Below are positions 3,744 through 5,106 of a stretch of 64,000 nt of DNA, in pieces. The stretch is from sequence record NC_054914.1, one strand, 5' to 3'. The translations under genes were made by a program, and so were the position numbers. The DNA comes from Escherichia phage vB_EcoM-fFiEco06. The notes beneath the pieces were generated by a model. It was not told where the DNA came from. It was given only the letters and a program-made list of their open reading frames with translations, and did no database searches. The first letter of the stretch is position 1, and every line of letters begins with the position of its first letter.

Positions 3744-3877
3744 AGTTTTGTGAAAAAATTTTTTAAAAAGTTTTAGGGAATTCTAGGGCAGGGAGGGGCA
3801 ATTAAAAGATAGGATAATATATTATAAAGGGTAGAAACTAAATGATGTCTAGAGAGGCCCGGAAAGGCCTAGATACC

Positions 3878-3904
3878 AAAAAGCCCCAACCTTTTGGTCG
3901 GGGC
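3878..3904 (-). terminator. rho-independent terminator
   Basis: Minus RNA GCCCCGACC-AAAA-GGUUGGGGC followed by UUUUU; downstream of ORF 3913..4386. Confidence 0.6.
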
Positions 3905-3912
3905 TAAGAATG

Positions 3913-4422: not shown

Positions 4423-4430
4423 TATTTATA
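4423..4430 (-). promoter_or_regulatory. late promoter motif TATAAATA
   Basis: Exact TATAAATA on minus strand about 40 nt upstream of ATG 4386. Confidence 0.4.
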
Positions 4431-4432
4431 CT

Positions 4433-4459
4433 AAAAAGCCCCAACCTTTCGGTCGGGGC
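4433..4459 (-). terminator. rho-independent terminator downstream of the tRNA/stable-RNA transcription unit
   Basis: Minus RNA GCCCCGACC-GAAA-GGUUGGGGC followed by UUUUU. Confidence 0.6.
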
Positions 4460-4511
4460 TAAGCCTTGCGGCAACCTTGTCGGGGTTCCACCTGCTAAGG
4501 CAAGTGTTTGT

Positions 4512-4776
4512 ACGAAACGCCGGGATTCGAACCCGGTTATTAAGCAGTTGACGCTACTCAATATTTTTAAAAGGCCATATCTCGACCATATCCGAACGTT
4601 CCGTCAAAAACGCTACTCGGCTTACGGCAAAGATATTTCCTCGAATCGATAATTCGGTGCGCCGTTTCTGCTGTGATATAAGGGGACATTAACAAAACAT
4701 AAAGATTTATTAATACCAGTCCTTAAACAGGGAACATCAGTCCGACGACTTGCCGGTAGCGACCCGGCTTCTTGTC
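4512..4776 (-). ncRNA. stable small RNA region (T4 RNA C / RNA D-like), including an RNA with a tRNA-like T-arm and acceptor stem
   Basis: No ORF; CCGGGTTCGAATCCCGG T-arm-like element at 4522-4538 (rc) flanked by pairing GAAACG/CGUUUC; position between tRNA-Arg and terminator as in T4; boundaries approximate. Confidence 0.4.
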
Positions 4777-4853
4777 TGGTCGAGGCAGTAGGGATCGAAC
4801 CTACGACCCAGGACTTAGAAGGTCCTTGCTCTTCCTTCTGAGCTATGCCTCGT
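4777..4853 (-). tRNA. tRNA-Arg (anticodon UCU)
   Basis: Cloverleaf folded by hand: acceptor CGAGGCA/UGCCUCG, anticodon loop CUUCUAA, T-loop GGTTCGATC, 3' CCA encoded. Confidence 0.85.
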
Positions 4854-5031: not shown

Positions 5032-5106
5032 TGGTGGCCCTGGGTGGAATTGAACCACCATCTGGCGATTATGAGTCGCTTGCTTGAACCTTCCAGCTAC
5101 AGGGCC
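5032..5106 (-). tRNA. tRNA with genomic anticodon CAU (T4 tRNA-Ile homolog by position; Met also possible)
   Basis: Acceptor GGCCCUG/CAGGGCC, anticodon loop CUCAUAA, T-arm GGUGG-TTCAATT-CCACC, CCA encoded; sits next to tRNA-Thr as T4 tRNA-Ile does. Confidence 0.75.

Follow-up and report, generated by a model that had tools for sequence, protein, structure and literature searches.

What does a T4-type phage encode between its last transfer RNA (tRNA) gene and the terminator of the tRNA operon? We addressed this question in Escherichia phage vB_EcoM-fFiEco06, a T4-type (Tequatrovirus) phage, using a 64,000-nucleotide (nt) stretch of its genome (NC_054914.1), referred to as the window. The interval 4512-4776 is the minus-strand sequence directly downstream of tRNA-Arg. 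An initial annotation, made from the sequence alone, had described it as free of credible open reading frames (ORFs), recognised tRNA-Arg as its upstream neighbour and compared it with the species 1 and 2 RNAs (RNA C and RNA D) of phage T4. These points held up: the interval almost certainly comprises the T4 small stable RNA genes rnaD and then rnaC, at the 3' end of a minus-strand tRNA operon.

The region 4430-4790 was compared by blastn with 50,697 phage records, of which 804 matched, nearly all from T4-like phages of enterobacteria. The interval matched Escherichia phages vB_EcoM-fHoEco02 and PM133 at 100% identity, RB3 at 98.9% and T4 at 92%. The T4 RefSeq record (NC_000866) annotates rnaD (species 2 RNA, 71053-71171) and rnaC (species 1 RNA, 70908-71046) right after tRNA-Arg, and the RB3 record (AJ884578) carries both genes behind the same ten-tRNA cluster as in the window. 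The interval aligns end to end with these genes, and their limits were carried over through the alignment. This places the rnaD orthologue, about 120 nt long, at 4655-4775 on the minus strand (3' end at 4656 according to T4 and at 4655 according to RB3), followed by an AAUUA spacer at 4650-4654 and by the rnaC orthologue, 139-141 nt long, at 4509-4649 (4649-4511 by the T4 annotation, 4648-4509 by that of RB3). The limits proposed initially agree with the mapped genes to within 1-3 nt.

The two genes differ in how closely they follow T4. rnaC, present as a single copy in the window with a score of 164.5 bits under our rnaC model, is 98.6% identical to T4 (137/139), so that two substitutions separate what is otherwise the same gene, and 100% identical to RB3 (140/140). 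rnaD is 83.5% identical to T4 and 97.5% identical to RB3; its differences from T4 are concentrated in the apical part of the long stem, and the 5' hairpin, terminal helix, internal loops and start 2 nt past the CCA of tRNA-Arg are the same in T4 and RB3. The gene order tRNA-Arg, rnaD, rnaC, terminator is also common to all three phages, and in T4 and RB3 rnaC likewise shares its strand with the tRNAs and lies between rnaD and the terminator.

Both RNAs are already known, and their existence is not a new finding. In T4, northern blotting detected RNAC as a discrete RNA with late accumulation during infection (PMC9697503), and the function of these RNAs, called unclear in the initial annotation, is described as unknown in the literature too (PMC3014915, PMC9697503, PMC12685909). 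Added here are exact coordinates, a corrected acceptor helix, a covariation-backed fold of rnaC, a pair of complementary invariant loops and the modular distribution of rnaC and rnaD.

The interval is non-coding. A coding reading was rejected on finding only mini-ORFs of 24-53 amino acids (aa) with TTG starts; moreover, rnaC homologues range from 140 to 143 nt in length through indels of 1-2 nt, which break the frame. Several GenBank records do carry coding sequence (CDS) features beneath the match, yet the short ORFs, these indels and substitutions that are paired across stems and show no codon-position pattern leave the encoding of small proteins with hardly any probability. Many T4-like genomes (for example MG781191, ON528745 and PV245934) list one to three 'hypothetical protein' CDSs over rnaD and rnaC, and few annotate either RNA; such CDSs are probably a systematic misannotation of a non-coding locus. 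Rfam release 15 returned no family for rnaC or rnaD, at gathering or permissive E-value thresholds, in the window and four other lineages.

A covariation-supported four-way junction for rnaC

Homologues of rnaC were collected from blastn matches in other genera, from IMG/VR pattern scans and from a metagenome pattern scan. The blastn matches contributed Mosigvirus RB69, Karamvirus ZX13, KaAlpha and myPSH1140, Kanagawavirus PEi20 and Q7622, and Winklervirus Kc304. Twenty-three distinct sequences were aligned with MAFFT, and the addition of one further locus (L045) brought the set to 24, from at least five genera. Positions are numbered with U4649 as nt 1, and all features described below lie on the minus strand unless noted. 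RNAalifold and single-sequence minimum free energy (MFE) folding agreed on a four-way junction, with an MFE z-score of -3.6. In the MAFFT alignment 98.3% of cells were paired and 17 pairs showed compensatory change, versus 5.4 +/- 1.3 in shuffled alignments (0/500), and controls with a slid register gave 3-6 compensatory pairs. An alignment fitted to the model, which leans towards it, gave compensatory change at 23 of the 44 pairs. Over both alignments, 98.3-98.7% of cells were paired, with 17-23 compensatory pairs versus 5-6 in shuffles. At the level of predicted secondary structure, this covariation shows rnaC to be a 141-nt 'giant cloverleaf' built around a four-way junction.

The cloverleaf is closed by P1, an acceptor-like stem of 7 base pairs (bp) with an invariant tandem U.U, in which the 5' strand CGAUUCG (4642-4648, nt 2-8) pairs with CGUUUCG (4519-4513, nt 131-137). 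The third acceptor pair covaries (A-U in 13 sequences, G-C in 10-11), and the neighbouring two U.U mismatches never change. The 3' strand runs on into an invariant tail, UACA (4512-4509, nt 138-141), the two together spanning 4509-4519. The D-arm position is occupied by arm 1, a 70-nt interrupted hairpin with many compensatory pairs (4572-4641, nt 9-78); although its sequence is replaced among the homologues, the length of rnaC is held at 140-143 nt. An A/U-rich single-stranded linker (4564-4571, nt 79-86) follows, with an invariant unpaired AAAAU at 4567-4563, the last U of which forms the first pair of arm 2 in the single-sequence MFE structure. Arm 2, in the anticodon-arm position, is a 10-bp hairpin with 4-7 covarying pairs (4538-4563, nt 87-112), and the T-arm, CCGGG-UUCGAAU-CCCGG, lies at 4520-4536 (nt 114-130). 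The T-arm had been picked out in the initial annotation, and it is the sole match to its pattern in the 64 kb, versus 0.02 expected. Its middle stem pair covaries (GC, UA or AU), and copies with a canonical T-loop vary only at positions 57 and 59, as real tRNAs do.

In that annotation the T-arm had been closed by a GAAACG/CGUUUC helix. This complementarity exists (4668-4663 with 4519-4514), but GAAACG lies inside rnaD, and the comparative data speak against the pairing. GAAACG is kept in Dhakavirus IME08 and in Providencia phage PSTCR6, both of which are without rnaC, and in Karamvirus, Kanagawavirus and Winklervirus, which are without rnaD, the 3' strand reads CGUUCC and the 5' strand of rnaC itself reads CGGUUCG. 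Covariation thus links the 3' strand of rnaC to its own 5' strand, and the helix that truly closes the structure is formed by 4648-4642 and 4519-4513. The error concerned only the 5' partner of the acceptor-like helix.

Two other pairings were considered and not retained. A selenocysteine tRNA (tRNA-Sec)-like alternative fold, in which ACGGAACG (nt 46-53) pairs with CGUUUCGU in the 3' strand, was suggested by a 16.6-bit Rfam match; it was ruled out by the Karamvirus-type change of U135 to C, which comes with G49 to A and is anti-compensatory, and by the absence of the helix in KaAlpha and PEi20. An unpaired GG (4576-4575) reads CG exactly in those copies whose T-loop is UGCAU(U/G)C. A tRNA-elbow-like contact between GG and the T-loop was set aside with this correlation unexplained, as it may go back to one evolutionary event and as the G is also able to lengthen stem P2. 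Separately, a 9-nt string, GAGUAGCGU, occurs in both long arms just 5' of the apical loops (4617-4609 and 4558-4550), which suggests that arms 1 and 2 may have arisen by duplication, or may exchange sequence.

Complementary apical loops and likeness to known RNA families

The apical loop of arm 1 reads UUGACG (4607-4602) and the 6-nt loop of arm 2 reads CGUCAA (4553-4548). These hexamers are perfect Watson-Crick complements, with a duplex energy of -5.5 to -7.5 kcal/mol, and both are invariant in 24/24 distinct rnaC sequences. The stems beneath the fixed loops are replaced: GCGUU/AACGU, GUAG/CUGC (KaAlpha) or GCAU/AUGC (PEi20) at the apex of arm 1, and GUAG/CUGC or GUGA/UCGC (L045) at the top of arm 2. 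The invariance of the loops is not an artefact of ascertainment: the same IMG/VR loci came back when the scan pattern left both loops free. The arm 1 apex of KaAlpha repeats arm 2 in inverted form, so that a 19-bp long-range helix there becomes the MFE structure.

Since the invariant loops are perfectly complementary, we infer that UUGACG and CGUCAA form a 6-bp kissing contact. The kissing complexes of the human immunodeficiency virus type 1 (HIV-1) dimerization initiation site (DIS) and of ColE1 RNA I/RNA II likewise join two hairpin loops, 6-7 nt long, that are perfect Watson-Crick complements, and the extended KaAlpha duplex resembles kissing-to-duplex isomerisation. Unlike in HIV-1 DIS and ColE1 RNA I/RNA II, both rnaC loops belong to one molecule, and the candidate contact may be intra- or intermolecular.

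Among known families, rnaC is closest in form to tRNA (RF00005), with which it shares a four-way junction, a 7-bp acceptor stem on a 5-bp T-stem with the 7-nt loop UUCGAAU, and a setting in tRNA arrays with tRNA-like spacing. Its top half is like that of a tRNA, including T-loop residues U54, U55, C56 and A58. Unlike tRNA, it is 141 nt long, carries a 70-nt arm in place of the D-arm and has a tandem U.U in the acceptor. An anticodon stem of 5 bp with a 7-nt loop containing U33 is absent from rnaC, where arm 2 has 10 bp and the 6-nt loop, and a 3' NCCA end is likewise absent, the encoded tail being the invariant UACA. ARAGORN called no tRNA or transfer-messenger RNA (tmRNA) in 4509-4775, and the Rfam tRNA call on rnaC stayed below threshold (tRNA-Sec, 16.6 bits versus a gathering score of 47). 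Lacking an anticodon loop, and ending in UACA where a tRNA has CCA, rnaC cannot function in decoding.

The tRNA-like domain of tmRNA offers a second comparison, as its 5' and 3' ends also pair into an acceptor stem beside a T-arm, with a large insert between them. Unlike tmRNA, rnaC is without G3.U70, CCA, a tag reading frame and the pseudoknot series, and the tmRNA models of Rfam gave only a 10.1-bit permuted-tmRNA match on the rnaC T-arm; the likeness is one of topology only. The YrlA family (RF02553), reported from bacteria and phages, is a non-coding RNA with a tRNA-mimicking module, as in rnaC. YrlA, however, has its tRNA-like part inside the molecule and uses its termini for the Ro/Rsr-binding stem, whereas the termini of rnaC form the acceptor stem. 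No YrlA match fell on rnaC: the sole match in the window (19 bits versus a gathering score of 69) lay on the tRNA-Asn/tRNA-Arg junction, and there was none in the other lineages.

rnaD, gene distribution and the surrounding operon

The 26 distinct rnaD homologues have in common a 7-nt leader and a predicted, moderately supported structure with a 5-bp hairpin, a long irregular stem and three interchangeable apical modules. The 5' hairpin, GCCGG-GUCGCUA-CCGGC (4752-4768), has an invariant 7-nt loop, GUCGCUA, and a covarying closing pair (AU in 16 sequences, GC in 7 and GU in 3). On the plus strand, the same positions were scored as a 'terminator-like' site, which is the reverse complement of this hairpin plus a T-rich run and not a terminator. 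The long stem is closed by a terminal helix between GUCGUCG (4749-4743) and CGGCG(C)AC (4657-4664) and contains two invariant internal loops, GACUGA/GAAA and CCC. A K-turn (kink-turn) or sarcin-ricin reading of the GACUGA/GAAA loop was dropped, since by inspection it fits neither consensus. In the rnaD alignment, 97.9% of cells were paired and 5 pairs showed compensatory change, versus 3.0 in shuffles (18/500) and 0-1 in slid controls. The 3' end reads CACCA in T4, RB3 and PSTCR6, CACCG in the present phage and CACAG in other copies. rnaD is an independent module and probably acts as a protein-binding RNA.

A hint of a host-specific function for rnaD comes from the T4-like phage BW1, in which the only single-nucleotide polymorphism (SNP) common to three independent lines evolved on the semi-permissive strain ECOR34 lies in rnaD (PMC12685909). 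In that paper rnaC is said to lie upstream of rnaD, and the SNP is assigned both to 'position 41' and to the 3' end of rnaD. The order of transcription in T4, RB3 and the window is rnaD then rnaC, and the position of the BW1 SNP in the rnaD structure therefore needs re-mapping.

The distribution of the two genes shows them to be separate modules, exchanged among Tevenvirinae tRNA arrays. In Dhakavirus IME08, tRNA-Arg and rnaD lead straight into the trailer and terminator with rnaC cleanly absent, and in Providencia phage PSTCR6 rnaD lies without rnaC between tRNA-Arg and tRNA-Ile. Conversely, rnaC in Karamvirus is separated by 5 nt from the preceding tRNA-Trp and by 3 nt from the following tRNA-Gly; in Winklervirus rnaC precedes tRNA-Trp, in Q7622 it follows tRNA-Met, and in PEi20 it is flanked by ORFs, no tRNA being found within 600 nt. 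To judge by these positions, rnaC behaves as one more unit of the tRNA array. A pattern scan for cellular homologues across 185,579 genomes gave 25 bacterial loci, none of which matched the rnaC model (best score 15 bits, E = 0.57), and a blastn search of 5,426 E. coli genomes returned no match to the query.

Two further elements were seen next to rnaC in other phages. In Winklervirus Kc304 (a Kosakonia phage; positions 454-525 of locus L012), a 36-bit Rfam tRNA match lies directly upstream of rnaC; it has no ARAGORN call, is unannotated in the record and may be a degenerate or unusual tRNA. In Kanagawavirus, Q7622 (positions 676-760 of locus L013) and PEi20 have in common a conserved non-coding segment right after rnaC (AAUUUAUGAUUUGUGUGGUGAAAUUUG...). 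The Q7622 segment runs on into a T-arm-like CCUGG-UUGGUAC-CCAGG hairpin where no tRNA is called, and may represent another tRNA-derived RNA.

In the window, ARAGORN called a minus-strand cluster of ten tRNA genes spanning 5604-4777, in the order Gln, Leu, Gly, Pro, Ser, Thr, Met(CAU), Tyr, Asn and Arg(UCU), of which Rfam confirmed 9/10. tRNA-Arg(UCU), the tenth and last (4777-4852, Rfam tRNA 65.8 bits), has an encoded CCA that ends at 4777, and a single base, G4776, separates it from rnaD. At the other end of the interval, a strong terminator had been placed directly after it. The terminator exists but starts about 50 nt further on: a 10-bp GC-rich hairpin with a T-run was found at 4460-4437 by a terminator scan, and the whole Rho-independent terminator of the tRNA-rnaD-rnaC operon, AGCCCCGACC-GAAA-GGUUGGGGCU followed by UUUUU, spans 4432-4460. 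Between it and rnaC lies a structured 3' trailer with small hairpins (4461-4508), conserved in Tequatrovirus and Dhakavirus; the 83-nt stretch 4512-4430, trailer and terminator included, folds with z = -3.7. T4 late-promoter motifs (TATAAATA) were found upstream of the tRNA cluster (5950-5943) and downstream of the terminator (4430-4423).

A 36-nt direct repeat with 94% identity occurs at 3873-3908 and 4428-4463, each copy being an operon-type terminator hairpin on the minus strand. The repeats flank a 157-aa minus-strand ORF (4386-3913, phrog_2280, function unknown), which has its own late-promoter motif, the one at 4430-4423; T4 differs in content at this position, with e.8 after about 285 nt. 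The repeat-flanked ORF looks like a terminator-to-terminator gene cassette. Within the cluster, the gene called tRNA-Met(CAU) (5032-5106) occupies the place of T4 tRNA-Ile, whose anticodon is likewise encoded as CAU and reads AUA after modification; its designation as 'Met' probably arose as an artefact of annotation. tRNA-Tyr and tRNA-Asn of the present phage and RB3 stand where T4 has segB.

Proposed biogenesis and function

The explanation that we favour combines the identity of the two RNAs with maturation by the tRNA pathway and a role of rnaC as a tRNA mimic or decoy, and we put its overall probability at roughly 0.55. Its parts differ in strength. Processing of rnaD and rnaC in the manner of tRNAs is quite probable. 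T4 tRNAs and the species I and II RNAs derive from a single primary transcript of about 1.75 kb (PMC2330249). In the window, no promoter-like site was found between tRNA-Arg and rnaD, and the terminator follows rnaC, so rnaD and rnaC would be co-transcribed with the ten tRNAs and then excised by the tRNA maturation enzymes. For RNase P, a T-loop on a 12-bp acceptor/T-stem stack suffices as a minimal substrate. rnaC has such a coaxial 12-bp stack, capped by a canonical T-loop, and RNase P therefore probably generates its 5' end, as it does that of a tRNA. The same cut would also free rnaD, the 5' end of which would come from 3' maturation of tRNA-Arg, and exonucleases would trim each RNA back to its terminal helix.

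A non-decoding mimic or decoy function for rnaC is a more tentative proposal, possible rather than probable. The loop-loop contact would lock the two rnaC arms into a compact body, and rnaC, as a stable tRNA mimic, would occupy or titrate a factor that recognises the acceptor/T-arm half of tRNA. Such a factor could be a host tRNA-directed nuclease, a defence protein, or a tRNA-processing or modifying enzyme, and the outcome would be a host-dependent, non-essential fitness benefit.

A number of points weigh against this explanation. Covariation cannot test the kissing contact, as neither loop varies; alternatively, a protein or another RNA could recognise each of the loops on its own. Arm 1 measures roughly 30 bp-equivalents and arm 2 10 bp, and an intramolecular kiss needs a sharp hinge in arm 1. 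T-loops in Winklervirus and some Kanagawavirus (Q7622-type) copies are non-canonical (UGCAUUC or UGCAUGC), and classical T-loop recognition therefore cannot be universal. The UACA tail is without the RCCA contact used by bacterial RNase P. For rnaD, thermodynamic support is weak (MFE z = -0.2 to -1.5) and covariation modest. T4 mutants with the tRNA region deleted still grow on laboratory hosts.

Other accounts of the two RNAs were weighed against the same evidence. They might be cis-acting processing or stability modules whose main purpose is to cap the polycistronic tRNA precursor at its 3' end, against exonucleases, and to order its processing, the stable RNAs being by-products with no function in trans. 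The Tequatrovirus position at the operon 3' end, just before the terminator, fits this account, as do RNA ends set by neighbouring tRNA processing sites and a literature that reports no function (PMC3014915). However, the mid-array positions of rnaC in Karamvirus and Winklervirus, and its place between ORFs in PEi20, speak against a cap. Both hexaloops, the tandem U.U, AAAAU and UACA are unpaired and yet the same in every genus, which a purely structural cap would not require. The total length also stays at 140-143 nt while the arm 1 sequence is replaced. We consider the cis-acting account unlikely.

Invariant unpaired segments and late accumulation in infection (PMC9697503) would also suit trans-acting regulatory RNAs whose single-stranded hexamers or linkers pair with phage or host mRNAs. 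Here the two best-conserved loops complement each other and are not free seeds, a seed of 6 nt would be short, nothing in E. coli genomes matched at blastn sensitivity, and the ends are processed helices without the terminator-type U-tail usual for Hfq-dependent small RNAs; regulation by base pairing is accordingly the less plausible of these two accounts. Least credible of the three is that rnaC and rnaD are decayed tRNA genes, functionless pseudogenes carried along with the tRNA cluster. The cloverleaf topology and T-arm of rnaC, its weak tRNA-Sec-like Rfam score (16.6 bits) and the location of both RNAs in tRNA arrays point in this direction, but compensatory substitutions preserve 98% of the pairs in at least five genera, the loops do not vary, and the identities to T4 of 98.6% for rnaC versus 83.5% for rnaD form a pattern of purifying selection, which makes decay very improbable.

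The tRNA-mimic explanation can be carried one step further, to a self-locking mimic, which at present we regard as rather unlikely. The 6-bp loop contact would give either a compact two-stack body or head-to-tail multimers, serving as decoy or inhibitor of a host factor or defence nuclease, and rnaD would be a second exchangeable RNA of the same accessory arsenal. If this were true, such a role of rnaD would explain the convergent rnaD SNP selected on a semi-permissive host. The rnaC fold, its complementary invariant loops and the fixed tandem U.U and UACA tail are new handles on these long-known T4 RNAs, and make their function easier to test.

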